Below, piece after piece: positions 17,137 to 33,328 of a DNA stretch of 64,000 nt. The position numbers and the translations under genes were made by a program. Location: positions 32,001 through 96,000 of the IMG/VR virus record IMGVR_UViG_3300032313_000668, one strand, 5' to 3'. Each line of letters opens with the position of its first letter. Position 1 is the first letter of the stretch. A model generated the notes under the pieces. That model was not told where the DNA came from. It did not search any database and saw only the letters and a list, made by a program, of their open reading frames with translations. The DNA is from a virus.

Positions 17137-20100
17137 TTAAGTTAGAAGCCTGAGCAGCTTAGACATCTGGGAAGAAATCTCGGACTGGTTGTAGTAATCA
17201 GCACCAGACATAAAACCCTTTAAATCTTTAGTGGCAATATCGGCATCTTCTGAGCCAATCTTGTCTTCAACTTTTTTAATCATATCTTTCATCAAATCCT
17301 GCAAAGCAGGTGGGATATCCGAGAATCTAATCTTTGTAGCAGTCTCTCCGAAAGCGAATGGTAAGTTAGCAATAACTTTTCCAAGTTCTGCGGAGCTAGT
17401 TCTGATGTTCTCTAAAGATTCAGGATTCAACGCTTTTGCGTCCAATCGGTCAATAATCCCAATCAAATCGGCTGCTGCGTCAGCTGAAGCCTTGTAGTCT
17501 CCAGCATTATCAAGGTTTTCAGCCTCTTCAACCTTTTCTACGACTCTTTGTAAGCCTGAAGTTCCTAAATCTTGCTTTAGTCGAGCAAGAACCTGACGGA
17601 ACTTTCCTGAAGTGTCTCGTGGCTGTGTTTCAGGTGTGTACTTAACCCGAGAATCATCTTTTTTTGGGGCGGCTTTTGCTTCCTGCTTTAGTGCTTCAAT
17701 TTCCTCAGGAGTTAGGTCCTCAATGATGTCATCCACGCCAGCAGCGGTCAAAACATCTTTTTCAAAAAGTGCTTCTGAATTTGTAGATTTTGTTGCAAAT
17801 TCAATGCGCTCTCTTAAATCAGCAGTCATGTCATCAATAGTGAATTCAGAGGAGGCAACCTTCCAGTTTTCTGGGATTAGGTCGCGACGGTCTAGGGCAC
17901 GAGCCTGCTTCATAATGTGCTTGCGAACAGCAGCTTTATGCCCTGGCTTTGCACGACCATATGCCTGAACTGCGTTACGCAAATCAGAAATATTTCGGAT
18001 TGGGTATGACCCGTCCTTTAGGGCCTTACCTTCTTGAGCAAGGCGCTCGCGGACTCGACGAGAAACTACTGCTAGTTCTTTATCGGTGTCATCATCCATT
18101 ATCTGATTCATGTAGTCAGAGTCAGCATCAATATCTTCTTTAGTTTTACGGACTTTAGCTGCAAGCTCTGCTTGACGCTTAGTCAAAATTTCTGTGTTGT
18201 AAGATGCAAACTTTGCACGAGCCTCTTCAGCAGCAGCAAGCATTGGAGCCTTCTGAGCCATTTCGAGGTTGTTAACTTTTGCGCTAAGTTCTGCAAGTGG
18301 GTCATGCTTTAGTTGAGCAAGTGTTGAAGCACCTGCAGCAACTAGAGCCATAACCTGACCAGAGGCAACGCGAGCACGAGCAATTGGGAAGCCAGGAACA
18401 TTTACCTGACAAACTGCAACGAGCTCAAGGGCACCCTTAATTGGACGCCAGTCACCTGATGGAGCAGACGCACGAGCTGCACGAATTTGCTCGGGGGTTG
18501 TGCCAGGTCGTAATGAACCTGAAACCCAAATTCCGTAGGCATCTTCTCCTGCATGTACATCTGCGAATGCTGAGGCAGTGTCGTCATAGTGACGAACTGC
18601 TTGCTCAGCAGAGGCTTCAAGACCAGCGTGTCCGCCAGCCAAAGTTAGTTGACCAACTGGCACATCCGTACCATTTTCGGTACGTAATACTCCAGTGTGG
18701 AAGTAAGCATATTTGCTACGAGAGCGTGGTGGGCGAGTACCAAAGGCCATACCAATGTGGTCTACATGCCAAGCAGCAATGTGACCGAATACGCGACCAT
18801 CATCACCAATAGTGAGAGGAGTTGCCTTAGTTAGTTTTGGGTTGTCGAACCATTCTGCTGGTGGCTCATTGGGAATTGCGCCAGCTACCATGCCACAAGC
18901 AACAAGTGCTGAAGCATCTAGCGGGTTCACCCCGTCCACATATACGCCATCTGGAACTAGCACATCTTCCTCCTGTATCTCAGCGCCATCATTAATAATT
19001 TGAATGAAGCACTCTTGGAACGCTGGTTTAGGCACGATAGTTACCGCCATGATACGGGCGTTCTTGATATTAATTCTACCTGACTCTATTTTCTTTGTAT
19101 CTTCAGAATCATCGCCAGTAGACTCTTCTACAACCTCTTCGTCAGCCTCGAACTTGTCCATATCAGCTGATACTCCACGGATAAACCCGTGACGAACTAA
19201 GCGCTCTGCTTCCATACCGAACTGGCCCTTGTCAAAGACTCCATAAGCATTTCCTATGCCGCCATCGACTCGTTCCATGTGGGTAATCTGTCCAACAACT
19301 ACAGAACCATCGTGTCCAGCCCCTGTTTTGATTTGCCATAGGAGCGGTAGAGGCAGGTCACGCATTGAAATAGCGCCTGCTTCAAAGATTCGACCATCGC
19401 CAGTCTCAGTTCCTTCGGGGATTACCAAAGGAATAGTGAACTTAGCACCGTGTTCTGTTGGGGTAACACCTTCGCGTCCCACCATGCGAGATTTAGCAGC
19501 TTCAGCGCGAGCTCGGAGAGTGAACTCCCCAATAACTTGCTCTTCTGGCTTTAAAGTTTCAACTGCAGCAGATGCTCGAAGACTCTTCTTCTTACGTCCT
19601 GGATTGTTCTTGTCTCCAGGCCAAATACCAGTCATCTCCTTGTGGCGTAGAGCGCAGTAACCCTTTGAGCGAGGTCCCAAATACTTAGCAAGCTGTTTGT
19701 GGCATCTAGTCCAGTCTCCTGGGCTTCCCCAGCGAATCTTTAAACCGCCCTTACCAACTGTCCAGTAACGACGAAGCTTCTCAGCGTTGCCACGGTTGCG
19801 GTCAGCACCACCTGCAGCTTGGATTGAGGCAATCAAAGCATTATTAGATAGTGCAGCTGCAGCTGGAATACGAACTGAAGCAGTTACTGTCTTGCTATCA
19901 ACTTGCTTAAGAACCTCGCACAAATCTGGAGTGCTTAATACAACAACAGGTGGTGGTGTTGGGCTGTTTAGGTCAGCCATAATGCGGTCGTTGCGTTCCC
20001 ACTTGTTATTGCGACGAACAAAAGTAGCTGGAGTACTGCTCTTAGTGCTTGCTGGTACAAGAGAAACAAGTTCCATAACTGCACTTGGGTCATCTTCAGC

Positions 20101-22020
20101 AACAATAGCCATGTAAATTGGAGGAATGTCAGAAGTTTCTGGCGTAAGAGCTACGTCTTCTCCTGCAGCAGTAAGTGCAGCAAAATATCTCTCGTCAAAA
20201 ATCTTCTCGTACTGCGGACGGTCTTTTTTAACTTGGTCTGCAGATTTCTTTTTGTCATACCCTGGCTTTTCTTTATACCAGCCACCAACACCTAGATATT
20301 CTGGAGAGTCTTTTGAATTTCCAAAGTTTTTGTCTAGCCAATCACGAAGATTTGGGTTGTTATACATGTTTGCTGCAACAGCTGGGTTCCAACCTGCAGT
20401 GCGGTTACCAATTGGGTCAAATGCACCTTGGTAGTACTCTCCCCATGCTGTATCTAGAGGAGGGGCTTTATCATAAACTCTTTCTGGTGCTGGCTGTGCA
20501 ACATACTCGGGAGTAAGACGCTGAGCGCCAACAAATGCGCCCCAGTCATTAATAAGAGTATTTACAGCAGGAGCTGTCAGTGCTGGAAGTCTTCCTGGAA
20601 GCTGAGCAAGAGGCTCGTCGATAGGAGTGCGAGGCTCGCCAAGAATGCCTGAGAAATCAAGATTGTTTTGTGGGAAGTTAGCGGTTGAGACTGGCTCGAA
20701 GGTACTGATTTCCTGAGTAGTGTTACCAGGAACTTCAACAGAGGTTCCATTGTCCATTTGTACAACAACATTGCCAGTAGTTGGGTTCTGAGAGGTAATT
20801 GTTCCCTGTCTAGCGTAGTCACCGCCAATAACAACTCGTGAGCCGTTAACAGCAAATCGTCCTAGCTTGTCACGAACTTGAGTGGCAGCATTTGCTGCAC
20901 GCTCATCTTCGGTATAAACACCAGGAGATGAGTCTTGAGTGCTTGGAAGAGTTACAGACTCTGAACCAGCGGGTGCTGCTTCAGCGAACTCTGTGGCAGA
21001 AGCCATAAGTCCGTCTTGGTCCCAGTAATCTTCGTCTTCAATTGAGTCCTCGCTAAGCTGGTCCATAAACTTGTAATCAAGTTCTGGCATTGCTTGCTCA
21101 AAAAGCTCTGTCTCATCGAAATTAAGTTTGTGTAGGAAAATACTTTCCATAGGGTTGTTATCAAGCATTGCTGCAATTTGAACAGCAGACTCTCGGTCAA
21201 CAGGAAGATGTATCTTCTTTACGGTGTCGTAAGCATCGTCCATTACCTTGTCGTAAGTGTGGAAGTCGTGCTCAACGTTGCCCATGTCTTCCCAGCAACC
21301 GTCATCCCAAAAACGGCATGTGCCATCTTCATCTACTTTGTAAAGACGGTCGATTCCTGAGCCATCAAGGCGAATGCGAATAAAGAAATCTGGCTCATAA
21401 TCTGCTGGAGTAAATGAAGCGTATCCTGTAGTTTCTGCCATGTTTTCATTAACATAGTAAACAGAAGCAGTCATCCCAGCTTTTTTATTTTCACGCTCTA
21501 CGATTGCTGAGGCCCAACGCTCTGCAGCATCTCCACCCCAAAGTGCCCATGCAATACGTCCGTTACTTGGATAGTTATCTTGTCCAGGCTTGTAGCCCTT
21601 ACCCTTTTTGTCAACTTGGTGACGAGGGAAATACTTTGCAATGTGGCGAACCTTGCGGATGCCAATCTGTCCACCCTTAGCAAGAGTGCGAGCAGAGTTT
21701 AAACCTACAGGTGTTCCACCACGGTTCTCTTCTTTGCGCCATGCAAGACCGCGCTTTGCCTCAGCAATAACAGCATCTGGGATTGTGTACATACGGTCAT
21801 TATCGGAAAAAACTTTAATGTCTAGGTCAGTTACAGCAGCGTTAGCCAATTCATAGATATGCTTCGCTGGCTCTTCGTCAAGAACATCCCACTCTGCAGA
21901 GGCAAGCAAAGCCTGCTTACTCTGTACATTAACAATAGTGTTTGTAGACTCGTCTACTACTACACCTAATTTGTTAGTTGAGAAAAGGACCTCTGAACCG
22001 AATCTGCCTAGATATTCCAT
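17137..22020 (-). CDS. capsid maturation protease fusion / head polyprotein
   Basis: Protease-like domain TGDGR...GHDG...RGVSAD...VPKPAF (about 19000-19440), second domain SGDWR...ELVA..VNVPGF, plus several accessory domains. Confidence 0.85.
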   Translation of the reverse strand: MEYLGRFGSEVLFSTNKLGVVVDESTNTIVNVQSKQALLASAEWDVLDEEPAKHIYELANAAVTDLDIKVFSDNDRMYTIPDAVIAEAKRGLAWRKEENRGGTPVGLNSARTLAKGGQIGIRKVRHIAKYFPRHQVDKKGKGYKPGQDNYPSNGRIAWALWGGDAAERWASAIVERENKKAGMTASVYYVNENMAETTGYASFTPADYEPDFFIRIRLDGSGIDRLYKVDEDGTCRFWDDGCWEDMGNVEHDFHTYDKVMDDAYDTVKKIHLPVDRESAVQIAAMLDNNPMESIFLHKLNFDETELFEQAMPELDYKFMDQLSEDSIEDEDYWDQDGLMASATEFAEAAPAGSESVTLPSTQDSSPGVYTEDERAANAATQVRDKLGRFAVNGSRVVIGGDYARQGTITSQNPTTGNVVVQMDNGTSVEVPGNTTQEISTFEPVSTANFPQNNLDFSGILGEPRTPIDEPLAQLPGRLPALTAPAVNTLINDWGAFVGAQRLTPEYVAQPAPERVYDKAPPLDTAWGEYYQGAFDPIGNRTAGWNPAVAANMYNNPNLRDWLDKNFGNSKDSPEYLGVGGWYKEKPGYDKKKSADQVKKDRPQYEKIFDERYFAALTAAGEDVALTPETSDIPPIYMAIVAEDDPSAVMELVSLVPASTKSSTPATFVRRNNKWERNDRIMADLNSPTPPPVVVLSTPDLCEVLKQVDSKTVTASVRIPAAAALSNNALIASIQAAGGADRNRGNAEKLRRYWTVGKGGLKIRWGSPGDWTRCHKQLAKYLGPRSKGYCALRHKEMTGIWPGDKNNPGRKKKSLRASAAVETLKPEEQVIGEFTLRARAEAAKSRMVGREGVTPTEHGAKFTIPLVIPEGTETGDGRIFEAGAISMRDLPLPLLWQIKTGAGHDGSVVVGQITHMERVDGGIGNAYGVFDKGQFGMEAERLVRHGFIRGVSADMDKFEADEEVVEESTGDDSEDTKKIESGRINIKNARIMAVTIVPKPAFQECFIQIINDGAEIQEEDVLVPDGVYVDGVNPLDASALVACGMVAGAIPNEPPAEWFDNPKLTKATPLTIGDDGRVFGHIAAWHVDHIGMAFGTRPPRSRSKYAYFHTGVLRTENGTDVPVGQLTLAGGHAGLEASAEQAVRHYDDTASAFADVHAGEDAYGIWVSGSLRPGTTPEQIRAARASAPSGDWRPIKGALELVAVCQVNVPGFPIARARVASGQVMALVAAGASTLAQLKHDPLAELSAKVNNLEMAQKAPMLAAAEEARAKFASYNTEILTKRQAELAAKVRKTKEDIDADSDYMNQIMDDDTDKELAVVSRRVRERLAQEGKALKDGSYPIRNISDLRNAVQAYGRAKPGHKAAVRKHIMKQARALDRRDLIPENWKVASSEFTIDDMTADLRERIEFATKSTNSEALFEKDVLTAAGVDDIIEDLTPEEIEALKQEAKAAPKKDDSRVKYTPETQPRDTSGKFRQVLARLKQDLGTSGLQRVVEKVEEAENLDNAGDYKASADAAADLIGIIDRLDAKALNPESLENIRTSSAELGKVIANLPFAFGETATKIRFSDIPPALQDLMKDMIKKVEDKIGSEDADIATKDLKGFMSGADYYNQSEISSQMSKLLRLLT

Positions 22021-22277
22021 TACTGGCTCATTTCCGTCTTGTACTCCTGGACAGCGGACTCATCTAGAGTTTCTCCGCTGGCTTGGGCTTTATCAAACAT
22101 CTCAATGAATGATGGTTCTATTGTAACGACTAGAAAGCCATCCCATTCTTCAATTTCACTCAAAGTAGGGGCAGACCAATCGCCATTACGACGAATTACA
22201 TCTCCAGTTTCCTCATCATTTTGGAAAAGTGCAGCAACCTTAGAGTTGTCATCAATTAGAACGTAAAGACCTTCCAT
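22020..22277 (-). CDS. small acidic protein (candidate immunity/partner)
   Basis: Translationally coupled; resembles internal segments of the protease polyprotein. Confidence 0.7.
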   Translation of the reverse strand: MEGLYVLIDDNSKVAALFQNDEETGDVIRRNGDWSAPTLSEIEEWDGFLVVTIEPSFIEMFDKAQASGETLDESAVQEYKTEMSQ

Positions 22278-22627
22278 TAGATGTAGTCCTCTCCATACTT
22301 GGCATCCATAGCATCTGCATATATCTGCTCGTCTGCAATAAGGTCATCAATTTCATCAGCAGTTTCACCTTCAATAGGGTGTAGTGCAATTCCGTTGATG
22401 TTATAGGCAGCAAGAAGAGCCCATCCTTCGGGGGTTGTTGGTATCTCTTCTTCGGGTCTACTTAAAGTCAGTCCTTGAATACGGTCTTGGTCAAAGGCGC
22501 TAAAAGCTTCCTTACGACCCTCCGCAACAATATATTGTGCTTGCTTTTCATTAGCAACAATAGAGAACATGTAGTCCATGTCTCGAATAACATCACCGCT
22601 ATAGAAGCGATATACCTGTGCAGTCAC
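22277..22627 (-). CDS. small acidic protein (candidate immunity/antitoxin)
   Basis: Starts 1 nt after the stop of the kinase-ending giant gene. Confidence 0.7.
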   Translation of the reverse strand: MTAQVYRFYSGDVIRDMDYMFSIVANEKQAQYIVAEGRKEAFSAFDQDRIQGLTLSRPEEEIPTTPEGWALLAAYNINGIALHPIEGETADEIDDLIADEQIYADAMDAKYGEDYI

Positions 22628-22628
22628 T

Positions 22629-25600
22629 TTAGTCCCTTCCTGTCATCTTGCGCCATTCATTAACATCAATAGCTTCAATTTCTTTTAGTCTCTGTATGAT
22701 ACGAGCCAACTGAGCAGGGCGCATTTGTCCTGGTTCTAATGACTCAAGATATTGAATCGCCTGTTGGATGCTCATATCTACAAGTTTCTTGTAAGCCTCA
22801 GCGCCTAGCTTCTTGGCCATTTGCTCAACAATAGCGCCACCATCACGTCCATAGCGACCAATTCTTAAAGCAAATTCCTTTGCATCATACATGTTTCGTG
22901 ACTTGTCATCGTTAAGAGCAGAAGCAAATCCGTGGTCGATAGGTATGATATGAGCATTTTCATGTCCGTTATCTCCTACACCAGCAGCGTCAATATTTCC
23001 AAACTGGAAATTAACGTGGTGGCGGTCAGTATTACTAATAACTGCATCCAAGATACCCATACGGATAGTGTCGATTAGGGTTGCTTTTTCAGCAGCACCT
23101 TCTGTGCGACCAATTTTGTTCTCGACATTAACAAATCCAGTAGCTGGTCCAGTTAGGCGAAGAGTGTCACCAGCAAATGTCTGAACTACAACACCTGGGT
23201 CAAGTTCGTGCACCTCGGAGAATACACGACCACCAATTCCAAGAGCAGCAGTAATACGAGCAACTTCTGCTTCGGCGCGAGCTGCCTGCGGAGTCTGCTC
23301 ACGTTTGAACATAAACTTCTGTCCAGTGGCTTTGTCAGTTACGAAGAAGTTCTCTCCGCTGTTAATACCAGTGCTTACCTGCTTGACTGTAAAACCAGTG
23401 TCCTGACCATCAATAACTAGGTCTCCATTTGGTCCAGCTTTTTTAGCTGCAGCAAAGAATTTTTTAGGCTCTATTGTCATTAAGCGAAGGCCAATTGCAC
23501 CTAAGTCATTACGCTGTGGCTGGTAGAAGTCACGTTCTTGATGAAGCGCTATTGCCAAATCAACTAGCTCTGAAGCAGTCTCCTTGTCTTTACCACTACT
23601 CTTTAGAAGCTCTGAAACTTTTTGTGCTACGGCTTGACGCTCGCGGAGGTCAAGTGCAGCCATTGGGTTAGCGTCACCATTGAAGAATTCCTGAATCTTA
23701 TCTTTGAATGGGCGTAGGAAAGGAGAATCTTCAAAGACTTTATCATCAGCGAATAACGCTTTTATTTTTTCTTTTGCTTGGAATTTATTCTCCCCCGCTG
23801 CAACGCGGTCTTCAGCAAGTGCAATTGGGTCAACTTCTTCTAAGTTAATTCCAGCAAATGGACGTATAGGACGCTCTAGTACACGACGTACCATGAAGTC
23901 TTGCATCTCTTGAAGCTTGTCTCCAAACTCCTTATACTTCTCATCATTGGCACCATTTAGACCACGAATTGCTTCGCTTAGGTTACTCATATCTGCTACT
24001 AGTGGGTCAGCAGCTGAACTTAAGTTATCGCGGAAGTTACGAAGATTATCTAGAGCACGAATTGGCTTGCGGTCAGCGTCTTCATCTTCATCTTTTGGAA
24101 GACGGTCGATAATTTGCTCAACTAATTTAAGGAAGTCATCCTTAGATTCCTTACCTTCTCCAGGCATAATGTCTTCTGGAAGCTCAGCGTTACGGCGAGC
24201 TAAGAACTTATCGCGGGCTTCACCTTTGAGTAGATTCTTTTTCTCAACTAGTTGGTCAAGAGCCTTCTGAGCAAACTCAGCAATCTGCTTTTCCTCATCG
24301 TTTCCGTATGCATTGACCTTCTCAATAATCTTCTGAAGAGGTGTGTCATCAAAATTCTTTAGAGCATTTTCGTCTCCATTAGCAAGACGTTCTGCAGCAT
24401 CGAGACCTTTTTGAGCATATTCGCCAGCGCGACGAACTTGACGGTCTGCATCAATTTCATTTGGCTGAGGAAGTTTCTCTTGAAGTGCCTTAAAGATATC
24501 TACAAGGTTGTCCTTGTCTAACTCAGCGGGAGTTCCAATAACTAGATTTTCATCAAATGGCTTAGCAAGACGTTTCTTGTAAGCAGCAAGACGCTGTTCA
24601 CGGAAGATAGCCTTGTTATCCTCGACTAGCTTGAGCATGTCCTCAAGCTTCTGAGCAATCTCATCTTGACGTGGGTCTTTACGACGACGCAATTGTTCAA
24701 TAGCACGTTTGATTTCATAATCACCGATAGTGTCTGGGTCGTTATTCTCTAGTTGAGCTCGGTAACTACGGATTCTATCCGCTGCACGATATAAATCATC
24801 GTCTGCATCGCGTTCTTCAGATGTCGGAAGAAGTGCAATAACTGCATCAAGTGCACCAGCAACCTTTTCGCGGTTTAGTTCTTCGGCATTTGCTGGGAAA
24901 GCATCATCTGCAAGTGGTTGATTCATACGTTGAATGAACTTAGCGTGACGAACTGCACGGTCAGCAAGAGCTTTTTCATTGATAACACCATTTAGTGCCT
25001 CAAGTTTATCTGCTAAAGCATTCTGAGCATCAGCATCAATTCCTGCTCTACGGATGTACTTGATTGCACTATCTAGATAGTCTGGGTCTAAACGGTCAAA
25101 GTCTGCTTCACCAAGACGTTCTAGTTTGTCAATAGCGTTACGAACATACTGACCACCTTGATATAAGTCTCGGTCAATGTCATAGTTTTGACGGTTTGGT
25201 AGACGGTTGTCGAACTCTTTCAAAACATCAATAACACCTTGACGATTTAGAGCATCAACATTCTCTGGGATAGCTACACCATCTATAGGATTCTTTAGAT
25301 TCTCGGCAATTGCATCTGCACGCTTCTTGCGAATCTCTGCTTTCTTAGCATCAATATTGTCACGAAGTTTCTCAAGCTCTGGAAGGATTTGAGCCTTTAG
25401 AGCAGGGTCAACAATTTTGCTTGCATAACGAATAGCATCGTTAATTTCATATGAACCAACTCGGTCAACTGGACCACGACCTAATTCCTCATTCAACTCA
25501 TCAATACGACGACGTGCCCAACGAGCATTGCGCTCTGCACGATTGTTGCGGAACTTGGGCATCTTTGCAGCAAGTTCACCTAGCTTGGCGCGAATTGCTT

Positions 25601-28600
25601 CGGGGTCTTCTAGGTCAACGAACGGGTCTCCTGCTGCCGCTGCAGGTGCTTCAGGAACTGGAGCAACCTCTGGAGCAACTTCTTCTACTGCAGGAGCTTC
25701 TGCTGCTGGAGCTTGAGGTGCTTCAACTGATGGAGCTTTTTCCTCTATTGCAGGTGCAGCTGGAACTGCTGGTGCTGCTGGAGCTTCTGCGTTATCCATG
25801 CGATAAACATTCGGAAGTTCAAAGCCCTTTGCAATTGGGTTGTACTCCCACTGACGACCATTTGGGTACTCAACTTTGATGCGAACTGCACGGTCTAGGT
25901 CTTCAATTGCTACAACGCGACCAATGTTCTTGTCACCCTTTGTAGGTAGGAAGTCACCAACCTTTACATCACCTGCAGCAAAAGCCTGAGGCTTCACATT
26001 TTCTTTGAACCAATCAATGTCGTGTACAAATGAAGGCTTAGCAACTGGCTGTCCTTCTACGGCTTCTGGCACAACGCCATCAGCTACATTCTTTACATCG
26101 CCAACAACTTCTTCAACTTCTGCATCAGCAGCATCTACTGCTTCATTACCCTTACGAGGCTTCTTACGACGCTCTGCAAGTGCGATGTCCATTTCTTCTT
26201 GGTTCATCCAGTTAATGCGTGGCTCTGCATCGAAACGCTGCTTAGCAACGGCACCATCAACGTGACGCTGGAAGCGTGAAGCAAACTTACGAACGTCTCC
26301 GTTTGGATACTTAACTAGAACATAGTCAACGTATACAACACCCTTACGTTGTAGTCCACCAATTTCTCCTTGGACTTTACCAATTACTTCACCCTCGCCA
26401 TACTTATCTGCCTTGGCTGGGTTTTCGTGAATAACCTTGTCACCAATTGCTAGTGGGTTACCGTTTGAGTCTGCGTAAAGACCTGCAAGCATGCGTAGGA
26501 ACACCTGACGACGATACTTCTCAGGGATTGGAGGCAGGTTGCGACGCCCACGACCATCTGAGCGAAGAAGCAAACCATCGCGCTGCTCTTTAATTTGCTC
26601 AGCAAGTGCATCAGCCATTGCATCAATGTTGTTGCGTCCGCCTTCAGAGGCTGCCTTGCGGTCAGGGAAGTTCTCAACAATCTGAGCAACTACTTCACCT
26701 TCGTCAACAACTTTTGCATCTGACTTGAAAACAATTTCTGCATCTACAAGCTGCGGAGTAATTTCGTTCTGACCTTCACCAACTGGTAGGTCCTCAACAA
26801 CTTCAACAACTGGAAGTTGGTCAACGTTTGCTGGTTCCACACCAACAGCAACTGACTTCTCTTTAGACTCTGGCTTACCTTCATTACGACGAGCAGCGTC
26901 TGCCTGCTCTACAGCAGCGCGACGTAGAAGTGCTTTACCTTCTGCCTCTGCACCAGCTTGTGATAAGTAGCGTCCCTCGAATACATAAATTTCATTTCCT
27001 TCATTGTCAAGGATTCGACCCTTAGCAATAAATTCATCTCCGTCTTGAGTAATCTCAAGTACAGCATTTCCAGCAGCAACAGTAACTGCTTGCTTGTTTA
27101 CATCTTCAGGTGTGCGCTCTACTTCTGGAAGTGGTTCGCCTGCAAGTTCTGCACGGTTCTTAGGACGACGAACTTCATCTAGGAATGCATTTTGATTCCA
27201 GAAAACAACTTTCTGTTCGCCTTCAGGATTTTGGACAACAATACGGCGCTTGAATTCCTCGACACCAAATTCTTCTCCACCACGGATGGATACAACTTGG
27301 AAGAATTCTTCTTTGTCTTTAATAGCTTTAACAAAGTCTCCAGGACGTAAGTCATTAGCCTTAATTTCACCACGGAACAGCTGGTCAACCTTCTCAAGGT
27401 CATTAGCAAACTCAGGTTCTGCAATGCGCATCTTGCCGTCGGGGAATGCAGAATCAATCTGCACATCAACAAGGTCAGCTTGTGGCTTTGGAGCCTGCTC
27501 TGGATTATCCATTGCACCAACATTGTCGATTGGGCCTTCTGGAAGTGCAGCAGGAATCTCTTTCTGAATCTCTGCAAGGTCTACTGGCTTACCAGCAAGT
27601 CCATCACGAAGAGCCTTCTTTGCAACATAATCTGCAGCGGCTTTATTAAACTCATCGATGCGTGGCTGTAGTGCTGCCATCTTTGCATCGTAGGCAGCCT
27701 TCTGTGCGTCTGCATCAAGAGCAGCTACACCGAAATCACCACTAGCAGCAAGGTCAATAAGTTTTGTAAATGCTTGAGCTGTCACTTCTGCATCATTTAG
27801 ACCATCATGCCAGTTTTCATTTTTAATTCCTAGGAATTCGGCAATTACACCAAGACCCTTTTTATCTGGAGCATCTGGCGCATCCTTAAAGATTTCTGCA
27901 GCCATTCCCATGGTGTCAGCCATGCCAGCAGGGTTCCACTCAAGGCCAAGTTCTGCAGCCTTACGTTTCATAATTTCGTCGTCAAACTTTGCGTTCTGTG
28001 CAATAGCAAGTGGGTTTGCGCCAGCCCATTCTAAGAACTGCGCAAGTCCTTCTGCTTGACTTGGCTTATCAGCAAAGAACTCATCAGTTAGCGGATTGCC
28101 ATCTGGGTCTTTTGCATTTTCCCCAGCGTATGTACCCTTAAGACTTCTGCCTGGGTTCATAAAGATATTGATACGGTCAACAATCTTGCCATCGCGCATC
28201 TTAACTGCAGCAATCTGCCAAGGTTCATTGCCGTCTTTTACATCTACGCCAGTTGTCTCAAAGTCAAAAACAATCAGGTCTTGACCTGCAAGCTTTTTCT
28301 TAAACTCTGCCCAATTACCTTGAGCTTCTTTAGCCCACTCAGCAAACTTGCCCATAAACGCTGGGTATGCAGGTTCGCGGGGTTTTGGTGGAAGTTTAAT
28401 GTTGTCTTCAAGTTTATTTTCACCAGTAACATCACCAAAAGAAACAATTGGAAGATTCTCTGGTGGAATCCAACGACCCTTTACTTCTGCAAGCTTTGCT
28501 TCATGCTCAGCGTTGAGAGCTGTATCTTCAATTGGGAACCAACCACCCTTAGGTCCTCGACCTGCTGGACGGTGTAGCGAACCTTCACCAAGTTGCGGTG

Positions 28601-31600
28601 CTTGGTCTTCAGGAATGCCACGATAAACTTCAATGCGTGTGTCAGGCTTCCACTGCTTCTCTTGTAGACCTTGACCTGGGTAATGACCAACAATAATAAT
28701 CTTGTCGCCTTCTCCAGCCTTGATATCAACAATGCGGAAGTGGTCCTTAGTGCTAATGTCGCCAATCTGAAGGTCTTTTGCTTTTACCTTAACAATGAAT
28801 GGGCCATTTGGTGGTCCACCAGCTGCGGCTGCAGGTAGTGCATCAGCCTGTGCAGCGTTATCAACAAATCCATCTTCTTCGCGCTTTGTTGGGTCAACAA
28901 AGTTTGCGCTAGCGGCTTGTACTGCAGCTTTATGTGCTGCTAGGTCTGCTGCATATTTTTCTTGTATGGCTGGGTCTTTTGCACCCCACTCGCCGTCAAT
29001 CTTCTTCATGTCCTTGCGACCACCAACGTAGTCTTCAAGTTTTGGTTTATTTAGTGGTTCAGCGTTGCCCTTTGCAGGAGCAGCAGCACCACGAATAACT
29101 TCAATCTTTCCTTCAGCAAACCAGTCACGGTCTTGTGTTTGGTGACCTGGGTAATAGCCCTTAACGTTAATACGATTACGGCCCTTATCCTTTTGACCAC
29201 CCTCACTCAAGTCTGCAGGGGCTGCAACTTCTTCAATAACAAAGAACTCGTTATCGCGAACTGCAATATCACCAGGCTGTAGATTTTTAGCAGCAACCAT
29301 TTCACGACGTGGCTCGCCCATTGCAAGGTCAGCCTCTTGTGAACCTAGTCGTTCGACTCCTTCGGCAGCTTCTGCTCTTCCTTCAGCTCCCTGAGGTGCA
29401 ATATCTGCTGGTAGTCCTGCCTTTGGTTCAGCGGCGTCGGGTCTTTGCGCGTTCTGCGGAGCTTGCTGCGGGGCTTCGGCTGGTTCTTCTTGGACATTTT
29501 CCCCTTCCAGTGCATCGACAATCTCTTGGTTAGACGGTTCGTTGTCGTTACCTTCGGCATAGATGTCTTTAAGCAAGGCGTTTGTATCTTCACCTTGAAG
29601 CTGTAGTGCATCACGGATTGCTTCACCTGGAACAGAGGCTTGGTATGCCTCGCCCTCTGGTGTTTCTTGGGCAAGAATGCCATGTCCTGGCATGTTGTTT
29701 GCTGGCTCTACGGCACGACGAAGTTCACCCTTAAGTTCTTCTTTGTCATATCCAAGAGCAATATCTACTGGGTTGTTTGAGAAACCTTCTGGAGCATCTG
29801 CTGGTACGTCAACGATGGCTTCATTAAATGGCTCGTTGTCTAAAGCAACATATCCCTCGGGGACATCCTGCTCTTGATTTTCTGGCAAATACTTTTTGTA
29901 GTCACCATTGTCAATAAAGTCGCGCTGCTCTTCAGGAGTCATGCCCTCGATTAGAGGTGGCAATTCTTTTGTAGGAACTTTAGCAACAGGTGCTTCTGCA
30001 ACGTCTGCTTCAGCAAGTGCATCAGCCATTTCTTTTTTCTCAAACTTGTATAGGTCATCAAGGAACTTGTCAACATCGACGCCTTGTTCCTTCAGTGCGT
30101 TGTAAAGAGCTTCCGCTGGAACGCGCTCATCGCCTTCTTGGAATGGAAGACGGCCAACACCTGTAGCAGGGTCTTCTGGAGTTCCTTCTACGGCATCCTT
30201 AAGAGATTCTTGCAACTCTTCTTGGTCAAACTTCTGTGCAAGTTCTGCAGGGTCATCTGTAAAGTCTGGAGACTCCTGACCATTGATTGGGCCCTCTGGC
30301 TTGTACTCATCGCGGTCTACTTCATAAGCACCCTTAGGAGCAAACCTTTCACGGATACGCTCCATGAGACCAGGCTCTTCGTCTGGTAAGAAAACCTGAC
30401 GCTCAGTATTGCGAAGCATCTCGCCAGAATCTCTATCAACGATAGAGCCATCTGGAAGAAGCGCCCAGTTCTTACGTGGGTCTAGCGGAACTAGTCCACC
30501 ATTCTTACGGAAGTCTTTTAGGCTCTTGCGGTACTCGCTTAGCTCTGCGCGAGATGCCTTCGGGTTACCAGGAATAAACTCTGTGCCCTCAGGGAATTCG
30601 CTAGCGCCGTCTTCTGGAAGTTCTGCAACTGGCTTGGCTGGTGGTTTATCTCCACCATCATCTCCGCCACCCATACGGTCTGGGCTTGGGTTTTCGTTTT
30701 TCTCAAAGCGTGGCTCATCTTGTCCAATAAAGTCTTGTACTTCTGCCCATGACTGAACAGCAGCAAATGGACGGTCATCTTCTTGTCCTCGACGATTTAC
30801 TAAAAATACTGGCTTGTTAGGGTCAAGCTCACCATTAGCGCCATCACCCTGTGCAACAACATTTTGGCCTTCACGCTCACGTTGCTGTGCCATTTCAAAC
30901 TGGTCTTTAGCAAACTGATTGTTTTCCATTTTGATGACGTCATATGCATCATCTGTGTACTTAACTCCGAGGTCAACGTTCTCGCCATAAAGGTCTTGGT
31001 CTTCTTTCTTTGGAGACCATGCATCATCGCGACGGAAACCTTCTGGTGCCTCAATCTCGATAAGGTCTGCTTCGTTAAGTACTGGGTCTTTTGCTGAAGC
31101 CTTTGCTGCACCCTTTGAGTAGCCATCCTTGGTCTGCTGACTTGGGATGATTGCTTTAATTGCTTCTACATTGCCTGCTGGAACACGGAATAGTCTTCCA
31201 TCTGGAGTTTCCATATCGAAAGTGTCGCCTTCGATTCCCTGAGAAACAGCGCGACCATTCAAATTCTGAATCATGCCATTAACACGACGGATAAGTGCAC
31301 GGAGACCGCCACCCATTTCAGCAAAGCGACCCTTACGGTCACGACGCTGACGCATTGCACGAGCACGACGAGCTGCAGAAGAGTTTCCATCTCCTAGAGC
31401 TGCAAGAAGTGCATACTGAGGAATTTGTCCTTCTGGGAAAGACTCGAGGCGAGCAACAGAGTATTCGTACTCTGCAGAAGCTGGGTGTGCAGTAAGTGCA
31501 GATGCAAGAAGTGTCTTGATTGCTGCGTCTTTAATAGTTGGGTCATCAGTCACCCAACGGGCACGGGACTGCATCAATGATGCGGTAGTCATATCATGTG

Positions 31601-31991
31601 CACGAGTTGAACGTGGGTGTGCAACTGGAAGAAGGTCTGTGTGTTCTGGCTTACCGTTTAGGACACGGTTTTGTTGAGCAAGAGTGACGTACTGAGAAAG
31701 TTCTGTAAGAGCGCGGTGCTTGCGAACAGAGAAAGGCTCTGCTTCATTCTTAGCAATCGAGCGGTCAACAATTGTCAATGCTGCACGAGCTGTAACTAAA
31801 CGAGTACCAGTAAATTCGGTGTTGGCTTCTTTAACAAGAGCGAGGGCAGCATCTTTAATCTTTTGTGTCTGCTCTTCAATAGTGCTGAGATTCTTTGCAC
31901 GCTTGATAGGTACGCAGTTAGGCACTTTTTTCCCGTTCTTCATTTTCATTCCGATTTGCTCGTATCCGTCCCAGCAAGGATTCTCAGCCAT
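22629..31991 (-). CDS. giant multidomain head-module protein: SH3/KOW-like repeats, DEDDh 3'-5' exonuclease, helical repeats, C-terminal HipA/PI3-4K-like kinase
   Basis: IVFDFETTG / AQNAKFD / HDGLNDA (Exo I-III); FMFK, AEAEV, NTDRHHVN and IDHG kinase motifs; lies between portal and protease. Confidence 0.85.
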   Translation of the reverse strand: MAENPCWDGYEQIGMKMKNGKKVPNCVPIKRAKNLSTIEEQTQKIKDAALALVKEANTEFTGTRLVTARAALTIVDRSIAKNEAEPFSVRKHRALTELSQYVTLAQQNRVLNGKPEHTDLLPVAHPRSTRAHDMTTASLMQSRARWVTDDPTIKDAAIKTLLASALTAHPASAEYEYSVARLESFPEGQIPQYALLAALGDGNSSAARRARAMRQRRDRKGRFAEMGGGLRALIRRVNGMIQNLNGRAVSQGIEGDTFDMETPDGRLFRVPAGNVEAIKAIIPSQQTKDGYSKGAAKASAKDPVLNEADLIEIEAPEGFRRDDAWSPKKEDQDLYGENVDLGVKYTDDAYDVIKMENNQFAKDQFEMAQQREREGQNVVAQGDGANGELDPNKPVFLVNRRGQEDDRPFAAVQSWAEVQDFIGQDEPRFEKNENPSPDRMGGGDDGGDKPPAKPVAELPEDGASEFPEGTEFIPGNPKASRAELSEYRKSLKDFRKNGGLVPLDPRKNWALLPDGSIVDRDSGEMLRNTERQVFLPDEEPGLMERIRERFAPKGAYEVDRDEYKPEGPINGQESPDFTDDPAELAQKFDQEELQESLKDAVEGTPEDPATGVGRLPFQEGDERVPAEALYNALKEQGVDVDKFLDDLYKFEKKEMADALAEADVAEAPVAKVPTKELPPLIEGMTPEEQRDFIDNGDYKKYLPENQEQDVPEGYVALDNEPFNEAIVDVPADAPEGFSNNPVDIALGYDKEELKGELRRAVEPANNMPGHGILAQETPEGEAYQASVPGEAIRDALQLQGEDTNALLKDIYAEGNDNEPSNQEIVDALEGENVQEEPAEAPQQAPQNAQRPDAAEPKAGLPADIAPQGAEGRAEAAEGVERLGSQEADLAMGEPRREMVAAKNLQPGDIAVRDNEFFVIEEVAAPADLSEGGQKDKGRNRINVKGYYPGHQTQDRDWFAEGKIEVIRGAAAPAKGNAEPLNKPKLEDYVGGRKDMKKIDGEWGAKDPAIQEKYAADLAAHKAAVQAASANFVDPTKREEDGFVDNAAQADALPAAAAGGPPNGPFIVKVKAKDLQIGDISTKDHFRIVDIKAGEGDKIIIVGHYPGQGLQEKQWKPDTRIEVYRGIPEDQAPQLGEGSLHRPAGRGPKGGWFPIEDTALNAEHEAKLAEVKGRWIPPENLPIVSFGDVTGENKLEDNIKLPPKPREPAYPAFMGKFAEWAKEAQGNWAEFKKKLAGQDLIVFDFETTGVDVKDGNEPWQIAAVKMRDGKIVDRINIFMNPGRSLKGTYAGENAKDPDGNPLTDEFFADKPSQAEGLAQFLEWAGANPLAIAQNAKFDDEIMKRKAAELGLEWNPAGMADTMGMAAEIFKDAPDAPDKKGLGVIAEFLGIKNENWHDGLNDAEVTAQAFTKLIDLAASGDFGVAALDADAQKAAYDAKMAALQPRIDEFNKAAADYVAKKALRDGLAGKPVDLAEIQKEIPAALPEGPIDNVGAMDNPEQAPKPQADLVDVQIDSAFPDGKMRIAEPEFANDLEKVDQLFRGEIKANDLRPGDFVKAIKDKEEFFQVVSIRGGEEFGVEEFKRRIVVQNPEGEQKVVFWNQNAFLDEVRRPKNRAELAGEPLPEVERTPEDVNKQAVTVAAGNAVLEITQDGDEFIAKGRILDNEGNEIYVFEGRYLSQAGAEAEGKALLRRAAVEQADAARRNEGKPESKEKSVAVGVEPANVDQLPVVEVVEDLPVGEGQNEITPQLVDAEIVFKSDAKVVDEGEVVAQIVENFPDRKAASEGGRNNIDAMADALAEQIKEQRDGLLLRSDGRGRRNLPPIPEKYRRQVFLRMLAGLYADSNGNPLAIGDKVIHENPAKADKYGEGEVIGKVQGEIGGLQRKGVVYVDYVLVKYPNGDVRKFASRFQRHVDGAVAKQRFDAEPRINWMNQEEMDIALAERRKKPRKGNEAVDAADAEVEEVVGDVKNVADGVVPEAVEGQPVAKPSFVHDIDWFKENVKPQAFAAGDVKVGDFLPTKGDKNIGRVVAIEDLDRAVRIKVEYPNGRQWEYNPIAKGFELPNVYRMDNAEAPAAPAVPAAPAIEEKAPSVEAPQAPAAEAPAVEEVAPEVAPVPEAPAAAAGDPFVDLEDPEAIRAKLGELAAKMPKFRNNRAERNARWARRRIDELNEELGRGPVDRVGSYEINDAIRYASKIVDPALKAQILPELEKLRDNIDAKKAEIRKKRADAIAENLKNPIDGVAIPENVDALNRQGVIDVLKEFDNRLPNRQNYDIDRDLYQGGQYVRNAIDKLERLGEADFDRLDPDYLDSAIKYIRRAGIDADAQNALADKLEALNGVINEKALADRAVRHAKFIQRMNQPLADDAFPANAEELNREKVAGALDAVIALLPTSEERDADDDLYRAADRIRSYRAQLENNDPDTIGDYEIKRAIEQLRRRKDPRQDEIAQKLEDMLKLVEDNKAIFREQRLAAYKKRLAKPFDENLVIGTPAELDKDNLVDIFKALQEKLPQPNEIDADRQVRRAGEYAQKGLDAAERLANGDENALKNFDDTPLQKIIEKVNAYGNDEEKQIAEFAQKALDQLVEKKNLLKGEARDKFLARRNAELPEDIMPGEGKESKDDFLKLVEQIIDRLPKDEDEDADRKPIRALDNLRNFRDNLSSAADPLVADMSNLSEAIRGLNGANDEKYKEFGDKLQEMQDFMVRRVLERPIRPFAGINLEEVDPIALAEDRVAAGENKFQAKEKIKALFADDKVFEDSPFLRPFKDKIQEFFNGDANPMAALDLRERQAVAQKVSELLKSSGKDKETASELVDLAIALHQERDFYQPQRNDLGAIGLRLMTIEPKKFFAAAKKAGPNGDLVIDGQDTGFTVKQVSTGINSGENFFVTDKATGQKFMFKREQTPQAARAEAEVARITAALGIGGRVFSEVHELDPGVVVQTFAGDTLRLTGPATGFVNVENKIGRTEGAAEKATLIDTIRMGILDAVISNTDRHHVNFQFGNIDAAGVGDNGHENAHIIPIDHGFASALNDDKSRNMYDAKEFALRIGRYGRDGGAIVEQMAKKLGAEAYKKLVDMSIQQAIQYLESLEPGQMRPAQLARIIQRLKEIEAIDVNEWRKMTGRD

Positions 31992-33328
31992 TACATATCT
32001 CCCTTAGGTAGCAAATCAGCATCGAGGCTGTCGTGTTTCATTGTTGCGAGCATTGATGCACGCTTAAATGGGTCTTCACCATTCTTAACTGCGCGAAGCC
32101 ATGAGGCACGGAATGCTGGCTCTGCTTCGTATCCCAAACCAGAGAACTCTGTAAGAGCAAGAATTGCCTGCTCTGGTGTTTCATAGTTAAGGTCTACAGT
32201 CAATTGAGTCTCTGCATATGCAGATGCAAGAAGAAGTTCTAGGTTGTCATCACGACGCTGTGGAACATCGTAACCAGATACTGAACCTTCTGGAAGAACA
32301 GCGAAACGGCACTTGCCATCTGCTTCAACTTCAAGAGAGATAATCTGACACTTGTTAGGGCCTTGGAAGAATACGCAGTTTGAACACTTAACGCCGATGT
32401 CTTTAACTTCGTTCTCATAAGCAGGTGTGTAACCAGCCCACACTCCGTCGCCATCTTGGTCAAATGGACCGTGCTTCTGAGTAATTGCAATAAGTGCATC
32501 TGCTAAATCTTGTTCTTCTGGAATCAAACCAGATGCTGTGACTGCCTGACCCTTAGAACTAACTTTTGTAGAACGTGGGTGTGAAACTGGTAGAAGGTCG
32601 TTGTCTGCTTTGTAGGAAGCGTTAAGTGGCTTACCTGCGCTAAGTAAACGAAGGAATGCATCAACACGAGTCATTGCCCAACGACTACGAGTTGTTCCTT
32701 GGTGTTGTGAAACTGAGAATGAAGATGCGCCACGACGGTAAACAGCTTTAACCATTGCAACAGATGCTTTACGGTCAGATGCTGCGTACTTGTTGTAGTC
32801 CTCAACTTTTTTCTTTAATGCTTTTTCTGCACGAACACCAAATCCAACTGTGTAAGCAACGGCTTTAGGCTCTGCTGGTTCGGACACAGCGGCAGGTGTT
32901 GGTTCTTCTGTCTTCTCTTCTGTTACTGGACCACCAGCAACCCAAGCGCGGCAGGTGCGTGCTGATGCACACTTAAAATCAAATGCTTCGCAGTAGCCAA
33001 GTTCGCCTGCTGCATCAATTGCATCAAACTCATCTGCGTTATCGGTTAGACCAGTCTCAATGCATGAAAGCATCTCTGGTGTCTGAATGAATACAGCGCA
33101 ATTTCCGCAAGTCTGCTTCTTCGCAGTCTCTACATCAACGCCCCACTCGCCTCCAAGTGCAGTCCAATACTCTTCGTTTGGCTCTGCTGGATTAAGTGGA
33201 CCGTACATTGCTGTATCGATTGCGTTCTTGCGGTTCTTAAGATTAAGTGCGATATCTTGTGTCGCAGGTGGGCAACCTTCTGCTGCTGCAGTTACAGGAG
33301 TTATTGGGATTAACTTCTTTTCAGACAT
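31991..33328 (-). CDS. head-associated protein with two Cys4 domains
   Basis: CGNC..F...GYC...C and CSNC.FF...C...GKC; VYRRG...WAMTRVDAFL domain; directly after the portal. Confidence 0.75.
   Translation of the reverse strand: MSEKKLIPITPVTAAAEGCPPATQDIALNLKNRKNAIDTAMYGPLNPAEPNEEYWTALGGEWGVDVETAKKQTCGNCAVFIQTPEMLSCIETGLTDNADEFDAIDAAGELGYCEAFDFKCASARTCRAWVAGGPVTEEKTEEPTPAAVSEPAEPKAVAYTVGFGVRAEKALKKKVEDYNKYAASDRKASVAMVKAVYRRGASSFSVSQHQGTTRSRWAMTRVDAFLRLLSAGKPLNASYKADNDLLPVSHPRSTKVSSKGQAVTASGLIPEEQDLADALIAITQKHGPFDQDGDGVWAGYTPAYENEVKDIGVKCSNCVFFQGPNKCQIISLEVEADGKCRFAVLPEGSVSGYDVPQRRDDNLELLLASAYAETQLTVDLNYETPEQAILALTEFSGLGYEAEPAFRASWLRAVKNGEDPFKRASMLATMKHDSLDADLLPKGDM

Follow-up and report, generated by a model that had tools for sequence, protein, structure and literature searches.

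Polyvalent proteins, a class named by Iyer et al. (2017; PMC5512222), are predicted to be packed into the phage capsid and delivered together with the DNA. They are the closest described relatives, in organization, of the subject of this study, a 3120-amino-acid (aa) protein (P0001; hereafter the giant) and the two small open reading frames that follow it (ORF A and ORF B). These genes lie in a stretch of 64,000 nucleotides (hereafter the window), bases 32001–96000 of IMG/VR record IMGVR_UViG_3300032313_000668, which derives from an uncultured lake phage (118,251 bp, estimated to be ~90% complete). Like the polyvalent proteins, the giant is a multidomain chain with several enzymes, coded among late, portal-linked genes (PMC5512222), and the hub domains of that class (metallopeptidase/ArdC-N, UvrD-type helicases, and ADP-ribosyltransferase) also occur in its relatives. 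The original prediction, made from the letters of the window, had used the frame of MuF polymorphic toxins; the closest published frame is that of the polyvalent proteins (PMC5512222). The kinases reported on polyvalent proteins form a Ser/Thr/Tyr-type clade without the C-terminal subdomain, mainly from (pro)phages of Verrucomicrobia/Chlamydia and Bacteroidetes (PMC5512222), whereas the giant belongs to an actinophage and is predicted to end in a full PI3/4K-HipA-CotH-Fam20-type domain. In the text of that article, the terms "HipA", "PI3K", and "immunity protein" have no occurrence each, and "RNase T" has one. Furthermore, polyvalent proteins are said there not to follow the polymorphic-toxin plan of a conserved front and a variable C-terminus, which the family of the giant does follow.

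The MuF polymorphic toxins of temperate phages (Jamet et al. 2017; PMC5576092) follow a similar plan: the gene lies in the head module, its front is conserved, its C-terminal effector varies, and a small cognate gene adjoins it. In contrast, the giant has no detected MuF domain and carries a second enzyme, and the immunity role of its partner is only predicted here. It is also five to ten times larger than the MuF toxins. In the HipBST system (Baerentsen et al. 2023; PMC10627512), HipT is a HipA-fold kinase without an N-terminal subdomain of its own and is inhibited by a small separate partner, HipS, which reaches into its active site; ORF A is predicted to lie over the glycine-rich loop and the catalytic residues of the window kinase. 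The kinase of the "Gratiaviridae" (Benler et al. 2021; PMC8008677) is likewise atypical and HipA-like, and its gene also lies between portal and major capsid genes in a tailed phage. In these Bacteroidetes phages, its neighbors are an ATPase and a glycosyltransferase, and it has been read as a late superinfection barrier (PMC8008677), whereas the window kinase appears to be an exchangeable cassette at the end of a giant protein and to have a cognate partner. T4 Alt, P1 DarB/DdrB, and the N4 virion RNA polymerase, which enter with the DNA, and the T7 gp0.7 kinase would be functional analogs of the giant, as enzymes that modify host proteins or protect the DNA on entry or at once; T7 gp0.7 is expressed after entry and is not packaged, unlike what is proposed for the giant (PMC5512222). 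None of these proteins is a sequence relative of the giant by Pfam, PHROG, and tblastn searches. As far as these sources extend, the polyvalent class, a HipA-family kinase between portal and capsid genes, and the effector–immunity logic of MuF toxins are already known. In the main texts of the literature searched, neither this kinase type on a polyvalent protein, nor an exchange of it as a cassette with a cognate partner, nor a predicted contact of the partner with the active site was found.

Sequence comparison of related loci indicates that the kinase at the C-terminus of the giant is exchanged between phages together with ORF A, which is predicted to cover the catalytic cleft of the kinase. 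The features concerned are as follows.

22629–31991, minus strand: giant protein P0001, 3120 aa, ORF with an ATG start, polyvalent-protein class
22632–23489, minus strand: atypical protein-kinase-like domain, aa ~2835–3120, with K2896, E2907, D2989-R-H-H-V-N2994, and D3019-H-G
22632–25991, minus strand: exchangeable C-terminal part (helical region and kinase), aa ~2000–3120, the left edge varying by lineage
22277–22627, minus strand: ORF A, 116 aa, acidic, GTG start
22020–22277, minus strand: ORF B, 85 aa, acidic, small head-module protein, ATG start
27768–28274, minus strand: DEDDh (RNase T/DnaQ-like) 3'-5' exonuclease domain, aa 1240–1408, Pfam RNase_T (PF00929)
30672–31904, minus strand: conserved N-terminal module, aa ~30–440, candidate capsid-loading or anchoring part

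The C-terminal kinase and its exchange with ORF A

The window copy of the kinase does not qualify as a member of the PI3/PI4-kinase family (PF00454), which is its nearest sequence family all the same, or of the HipA family (PF07804, HipA_C). Because the kinase was not callable from the window sequence alone, relatives were collected and aligned, and the tail of the giant was folded. Among the kinase relatives, 22 of 31 reached PF00454 at an expectation value (E) of 0.01 or lower (best 2.4e-6). The AlphaFold2 model of the last 430 aa had a predicted local distance difference test (pLDDT) score of 92.9 and a predicted template modeling (pTM) score of 0.92, and all of its top structural matches were kinases (CotH/PI4K-II/HipA/Fam20-like). 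K2896, E2907, N2987, D2989, R2990, N2994, D3019, and G3021 are invariant in 31/31 aligned sequences (alignment A2), and the bilobal model contains the ATP-binding Lys, the helix-C Glu, the catalytic Asp/Asn loop, and the metal-binding Asp of a kinase fold. By its predicted structure, the C-terminal domain is thus an intact atypical kinase of the PI3/4K-HipA-CotH-Fam20 fold group with no single family assigned, and both the model and the 31 relatives agree with the HipA/PI3-4K-type kinase with K, E, DRHxxN, and DHG motifs that had originally been read from the sequence. The modeled fold would be compatible with a protein or a lipid substrate alike.

The kinase profile matched 116 of 1.84 billion representative proteins at E ≤ 0.001, 61 of which are at least 1500 aa long, and in all 37 proteins matched at E ≤ 1e-30 the match ended 15 residues or fewer from the C-terminus. 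Against PDB sequences, the profile gave sub-threshold Fam20 rows only (E 0.096–0.17). An IMG/VR scan with the single kinase sequence returned five pattern matches, none of which was confirmed, whereas the alignment-based scan succeeded. In bacterial and archaeal species genomes, two weak matches (E 2e-6 and 1e-5) were found in proteobacterial metagenome-assembled genomes, and no prophage copy was found at that sensitivity. The kinase region (window 22632–23921) also weakly matches the PADLOC candidate defence family PDC-M03A (best E 4.7e-5), and related kinases may therefore also serve the host side.

For the comparison of loci, 18 related IMG/VR loci were fetched by the head-maturation protease fusion encoded downstream of ORF B (L003–L020) and 18 by the kinase (L021–L038); none of the giants in the protease-fetched loci carries the kinase. 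Between the window and its nearest relative, L026, identity amounts to 70–88% in aa 700–2000 of the giant, 42–49% in the kinase, 44% in ORF A, 64% in ORF B, and 83% in the protease fusion, and the giants P0013/15/16/17 share 80–85% identity with the window up to aa ~1970 and 35–44% beyond. The giants of L022 and L030 are 75–96% identical until ~700 aa from the C-terminus and 27–53% identical thereafter, whereas those of L030 and L034 show the opposite pattern, with 22–57% before and 77–93% in the last ~700 aa; the breakpoints in these three loci, ~700 aa from the C-terminus, are sharp. A quick IQ-TREE phylogeny (35 rows; branch support by the SH-aLRT test) was built on aa 1–600 of the protease fusion. 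In it, the non-kinase loci L003 and L004 form the sister group of the window and L026 (support 98), and the latter two fall within a clade of 19 rows (support 99), 17 of which lack the kinase, while the other kinase loci lie outside. On this placement, the backbone of the window phage is closer to phages whose giants have different ends.

Three C-terminal types of the giant were distinguished, namely the kinase, DUF3626 (L003 and L004), and a domain called type X (13 IMG/VR loci and the lake phage DSL-LC01), and each is paired with its own type of downstream small ORF (the kinase with A3, type X with A4, and DUF3626 with one of its own). A variable C-terminal effector next to a cognate small gene, the arrangement of MuF toxins, is therefore found in this family. 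Across pairwise identities in 11 loci, the kinase correlates with ORF A (Pearson 0.93; partial correlation given the protease 0.87; p 0.0005 by 2000 permutations), whereas ORF B correlates with the protease (Pearson 0.96) and has a partial correlation of −0.16 with the kinase. Two contrasting pairs illustrate the difference: L022 and L030 are 91% identical in the protease and 90% in ORF B, versus 50% in the kinase and 36% in ORF A, and L030 and L034 are 70% and 52% identical in the former two, versus 89% and 89% in the latter two. The correlations and these pairs therefore suggest that the exchanged unit consists of the C-terminal part of the giant and ORF A, with the right-hand edge between ORF A and ORF B.

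Type X, the commonest alternative to the kinase, spans ~450 aa with 75 invariant columns in seven sequences, and no Pfam or PDB-sequence family was found for it. Its copies are located as follows.

Type X domain: L005:8044-9393, L007:7772-9121, L009:8056-9405, L010:8024-9373, L013:4057-5406, L015:8052-9401, L016:8056-9405

The small proteins encoded downstream of the giant

The ORF A profile (alignment A3, 10 sequences) matched the window and all 17 kinase loci with downstream DNA, and gave no match at E ≤ 10 in the other 19 loci holding the slot. In a reverse IMG/VR scan with ORF A, all eight loci recovered were on contigs already known for the kinase, and the hhalign comparison of ORF A with the small-ORF family of the non-kinase loci returned a probability of 0.2%. 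ORF A was modeled with a pLDDT of 90.6, and structure searches found no known fold or solved look-alike for it. The last 430 aa of the kinase (alignment A2) and ORF A (alignment A3) were then co-folded in three runs with three controls, and the interface score ipSAE was 0.72, 0.68, and 0.74, versus 0.00 for the best control. Of 80 solved complexes, 58 attain the mark set for this score, as do 2 of 110 mismatched pairs; these counts are approximate because the alignments came from this study. At least 94% of contacts are common to the runs, with a partner pLDDT of at least 86, and the pass is unlikely to be the recall of a known complex because ORF A has no solved look-alike.

In the predicted complex, residues 67–84 of ORF A contact the glycine-rich loop (2872–2878), D2989, H2991–N2994, D3019, G3021, and residues 3027–3033 of the kinase, and the invariant N76 of ORF A is placed beside the catalytic Asp and Asn. 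The model supports binding of ORF A over the catalytic cleft of the kinase. A role of ORF A as a substrate fits less well because the residue at the catalytic center is an invariant Asn. ORF A is accordingly described here as a predicted active-site plug and cognate partner of the kinase cassette, which may inhibit the kinase.

ORF B behaves differently. Its profile, built from kinase loci, matched every one of the 15 kinase loci extending to the slot and also found the same position occupied in 14 of 19 non-kinase loci (E 2e-7 to 4e-3). L003, L004, L007, L013, and the Microbacterium phage Cece were missed by the profile, although BLASTP still ties the proteins of L004, L007, and L013 to the B family. 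Since its identity follows the protease and it is present beside non-kinase giants, ORF B is not regarded as a kinase immunity protein; by sequence comparison, it belongs with the backbone as a general small protein of the head module and is not a partner of the kinase. For ORF B, matches to DUF7861 (E 0.2) and Cas2e (E 0.0078) were dismissed as noise, and no family was assigned.

The suggestion that the small genes neutralize or chaperone the giant during assembly thus gains partial support for ORF A, which is linked to the kinase and predicted on its cleft, and finds none for ORF B, which had been called immunity-like but tracks the protease and occurs beside giants without the kinase. Likewise, the proposal that the C-terminal domain and the downstream genes swap together holds for the kinase and ORF A and does not hold for ORF B, and the co-folding suggested as a check of the kinase with the small proteins came out in favor of the pairing with ORF A.

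A-type and B-type sequences are also found fused in one ORF, as listed below; in L005, which is closely related to loci with such a fusion, they are separate ORFs that overlap by 44 bases. The fusion suggests that the A-type and B-type proteins act together.

A–B fused ORFs of 206 aa: L010:9376-9996, L011:1038-1658
A–B fused ORFs of 180 aa: L003:4755-5297, L004:8629-9171

A second set of fusions involves a Cys-rich domain of ~130 aa, annotated "high potential iron-sulfur protein" in DSL-LC01, which shifts its place within the head module. In the window, it forms the N-terminus of a 445-aa protein encoded upstream of the giant (window 32903–33328, aa 1–142). It stands at the C-terminus of ORF A homologs in five kinase loci (57–79% identity) and is fused to the ORF B homolog in DSL-LC01 (L001:24946-25680; 56% identity).

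ORF A homologs fused to the Cys-rich domain: L022:6976-7752, L027:6927-7733, L028:6967-7728, L030:6961-7722, L034:6976-7740

Front of the giant, neighboring genes, and host

The exonuclease domain of the giant matched RNase_T with E 6.1e-17 (63.1 bits versus a cut-off of 24) over profile positions 1–164 of 164, as well as PHROG 192 (E 2.2e-28) and the PADLOC DEDDh profile (E 7.7e-21). The catalytic motifs D1243-x-E1245, KFDDE, and H1395-x4-D1400 are in place, and on this sequence evidence membership in the DEDDh/RNase_T family is beyond doubt. The length-matched search for relatives of the giant yielded 95 proteins of 1716–5460 aa, of which 82 carry PF00929. The pair of PF18818 and PF08401, which we take to be MPTase-PolyVal and ArdC-N, is present in 18 of the 95, and source names of these proteins include "antirestriction protein ArdC". 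Other cargo among the 95 comprises UvrD-type helicase families (many), NUDIX (3), the ADP-ribosyltransferase family PF03496 (3), DUF3626 (2), and PF00454 (5). Two effector-type domains thus reside in one polypeptide of 3120 aa, the gene is coded with the portal and other late virion genes in one minus-strand head–tail block, and hub domains (PF18818 with PF08401, UvrD-type, and PF03496) occur in the homologs. Judged by these features, the giant belongs to the known class of polyvalent proteins (PMC5512222).

The front of the giant is common to all 95 relatives. Residues 1–400 are matched at the relatives' own N-terminus by 65–91 of the 95 proteins per 100-aa bin, aa 551–830 and 890–1630 are mostly common too, and the last ~1500 aa are variable. 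Residues 190–319 match the N-terminus of Cece gp68, a protein of 1654 aa (E 9e-7). The N-terminal module had no Pfam, PDB-sequence, or usable ESM Atlas match, and the Pfam search also covered seven aligned N-termini of relatives. A WD40 identity listed in PDB profile rows was rejected, these rows being sums of 7–12 repeats with E > 100 for any single stretch. Even with the threshold relaxed to E ≤ 1, neither the giant nor the 445-aa protein matched Phage_Mu_F, nor did aa 1–800 of the protease fusion, and a profile search of the seven N-termini found no MuF domain either. The module may represent a new capsid-delivery scaffold for many cargos, in line with the undescribed scaffold suggested in the original prediction.

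Several motifs recur among the head proteins. The tag DLLPV[AS]HPRST occurs in the giant (DLLPVAHPRST, aa 119–129) and in the 445-aa protein (aa 244–254, with a further tag site at aa 438–441), and RDxxG[RK]F occurs once in the giant (RDRKGRF, aa 217–223) and twice in the protease fusion (aa 383–389 and 1468–1474). Both are conserved across the aligned N-termini of relatives (alignment A6), and they may be protease sites or capsid-targeting tags. A short Cys-bearing motif at aa 4–31 of the giant (window 31899–31982) matches five function-unassigned PHROG families at varied profile positions and is present only in the window and L004 among the seven aligned N-termini. Between the exonuclease and the kinase, a helical segment preceding the latter in alignment A2 (window 25731–25982, aa ~2004–2087) matches a second place further up the giant (E 1.7e-6), which suggests that this region is built of diverged repeats. 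BLASTP of the giant against itself at E ≤ 1e-3 revealed no internal repeats, and SH3-like repeats seen by eye are therefore not established.

The remaining genes of the head block are the following.

33328–35091, minus strand: portal gene, 587 aa, phrog_776 portal (E 1.4e-108), opening the coupled head block
31991–33328, minus strand: 445-aa head-module protein with the N-terminal Cys-rich domain (aa ~3–142) and a DUF5824-like middle
17137–22020, minus strand: 1627-aa fusion protein with a head-maturation protease region at aa ~843–1305
14843–16972, minus strand: major capsid gene, 709 aa, phrog_777 major head protein (E 1.5e-85), ending the head block

The minus-strand chain runs from the portal gene through the 445-aa gene, the giant, ORF A, ORF B, the protease fusion, and the major capsid gene to the adaptor, major tail, and tape measure genes. 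At the junction of the giant and ORF A, the TAA stop codon is followed by one base and the GTG start, with GGAAGGG just 5' of the GTG, and TAATG overlaps are present at the junctions of ORF A with ORF B and of ORF B with the next gene. The net charges of ORF A and ORF B are −16 and −15. Between positions 16800 and 36700, 14 promoter-like sites were counted versus 21.3 expected in shuffles and 26 terminator-like sites versus 20.4 expected, neither being an excess. The portal protein shares 72% identity with the annotated DSL-LC01 portal and 57% with its Cece counterpart. The 445-aa protein has no Pfam family above the cut-off (DUF5824 E 0.0029; HIPIP 0.014); its DUF5824-like middle ends in DLLPVSHPRST, and it has additional CxxC motifs. 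The 1627-aa fusion matches phrog_859 (E 3.9e-96) and the head maturation protease phrog_18402 (E 1.8e-56); full-length homologs with ~40% identity were found only in Microbacterium phages and DSL-LC01, and partial homologs occur in Arthrobacter and Gordonia phages, the Cece homolog being annotated as a capsid maturation protease.

Much of the gene reading in the original prediction stands against these data: the DEDDh exonuclease is intact, no MuF domain is apparent, and two small, acidic ORFs are tightly coupled behind the giant. The giant does lie within the head operon, but the portal is separated from it by the 445-aa gene, and the gene called a protease on its other side contains a protease region as only one part of a larger fusion.

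Two WhiB-family genes of the same genome (G000:C1:21151-21351 and 22139-22348, outside the window) pass the Pfam cut-off. Because of these genes and the homologs of the head genes in Microbacterium, Arthrobacter, and Gordonia phages, the host is very probably an actinobacterium. Among deposited phages, megablast found no close DNA relative of the window, and tblastn with aa 121–3120 of the giant returned 18 records, of which only DSL-LC01 was matched outside the exonuclease (9% of the query). No cultured phage carrying the kinase was found in these megablast and tblastn searches; Microbacterium phages such as Cece are the closest cultured phages that have the head module.

Proposed mechanism and alternatives

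Based on the predicted structures, the cassette exchange, and the gene order, a possible mechanism was proposed. The giant would be made late, alongside the head proteins, and ORF A would lie across the glycine-rich loop, the catalytic loop, and the DHG motif to keep the kinase off during production. The giant could then enter the procapsid by means of its front module and reach the next host together with the DNA, where the kinase, freed of ORF A, and the exonuclease may act before phage gene expression. Taken as a whole, this reading, in which a three-part polyvalent protein is loaded into the capsid and injected and bears a kinase that is exchanged with ORF A and kept off by it, is considered somewhat probable.

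Several points weigh against it. Packaging is argued from gene position and from analogy with the polyvalent proposal, which is itself a prediction, and the front module resembles no known capsid-targeting domain in the Pfam, PDB-sequence, and ESM Atlas searches. The HipA-family kinase between the portal and capsid genes of gut phages is described as acting late in the producing cell and not on entry (Benler et al. 2021; PMC8008677). The window kinase itself scores below the Pfam cut-offs (PF00454 E 0.013, 15.9 bits versus 27.1; Fam20C 0.014; HipA_C 0.21). The co-fold expresses the confidence of a model, and a substrate, too, would be expected to touch the cleft. Near-copies are frequent among the loci, and the independent swaps are few (at least two changes on the tree, in addition to the exchanges seen in pairwise identities and breakpoints). 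Finally, the A–B fusions belong to two lineages that both lack the kinase.

These fusions bear on the role of ORF A. It may be a substrate, an activator, or a loading adaptor or chaperone that joins the variable kinase cassette to the conserved assembly machinery and whose conserved half would be ORF B. The occurrence of a separate A-type gene for each C-terminal type agrees with such a role, as do the fusions with B-type sequences in L010/L011 and L003/L004, those with the Cys-rich domain of the 445-aa protein in L022/27/28/30/34, and, for a substrate, the predicted cleft contact, and the adaptor is kept under consideration because the domain fusions fit it as well as they fit an inhibitor. 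This explanation is nevertheless judged unlikely, as the predicted interface spans the glycine-rich loop, the catalytic Asp/Asn, and the metal-binding Asp together, so that both ATP and substrate would be blocked, the residue closest to the catalytic Asp is the invariant N76 and not a Ser, Thr, or Tyr, and HipS provides a precedent for a small partner that inhibits HipT by entering its active site (PMC10627512). That both ORF A and ORF B are kinase-specific immunity or chaperone proteins, as the original prediction had it in full, is very improbable: the two have small size, acidity, and translational coupling to the giant in common, but ORF B homologs occupy the same slot in most of the non-kinase loci, ORF B follows the protease and not the kinase, and the right-hand breakpoint of the cassette falls between the two genes.

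Delivery by the virion and the nature of the substrate are open to other explanations as well. The giant could stay unpackaged and function as a late enzyme in the producing cell, for example in superinfection block or host remodeling, with ORF A tuning its activity. Its position in the late head operon implies late expression, no capsid-targeting domain was recognized in the front module by Pfam and PDB profile searches, and a role of this kind has been proposed for the "Gratiaviridae" kinases (PMC8008677); however, the slot between portal and protease is fixed across the giant family, the front end is kept while the cargo varies, and the pairing of ArdC-N with a metallopeptidase, which is characteristic of proteins cotransferred with DNA (PMC5512222), is present in 18 of the 95 relatives. 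An inhibitor co-produced with the kinase would also make little sense if the kinase were meant to act then, and this explanation is considered quite unlikely. Alternatively, the C-terminal domain could be a lipid or small-molecule kinase and not a protein kinase, with phosphatidylinositol, which is present in the membranes of many actinobacteria, as one candidate substrate. PI3_PI4_kinase is the sole Pfam family reached by the relatives, and the two WhiB genes and the head genes shared with Microbacterium, Arthrobacter, and Gordonia phages point to an actinobacterial host; a lipid or small-molecule substrate is still regarded as improbable.

If the favored reading of a capsid-loaded giant with a plugged kinase is correct, the DNA of actinobacterial tailed phages would arrive accompanied by a ready-made kinase and exonuclease. 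A dedicated inhibitor, exchanged along with the kinase, would control it, and the effector–immunity logic known from bacterial polymorphic toxins would be at work inside a virion-assembly operon. A broader view is advanced tentatively, with the balance of judgment somewhat against it: the giant would be a phage counterpart of the polymorphic toxins, a head-loaded protein with an exchangeable effector and a plug that is left behind at packaging, armed on injection and carried by a new multi-cargo delivery scaffold. The kinase clade is rare, and its substrate may be a protein or a lipid. The kinase tail and its 116-aa partner would form a defined pair for studying how toxic cargo is silenced during assembly, and the N-terminal module shared across the family may act as a general signal for capsid loading, with a use in filling phage heads with foreign proteins.

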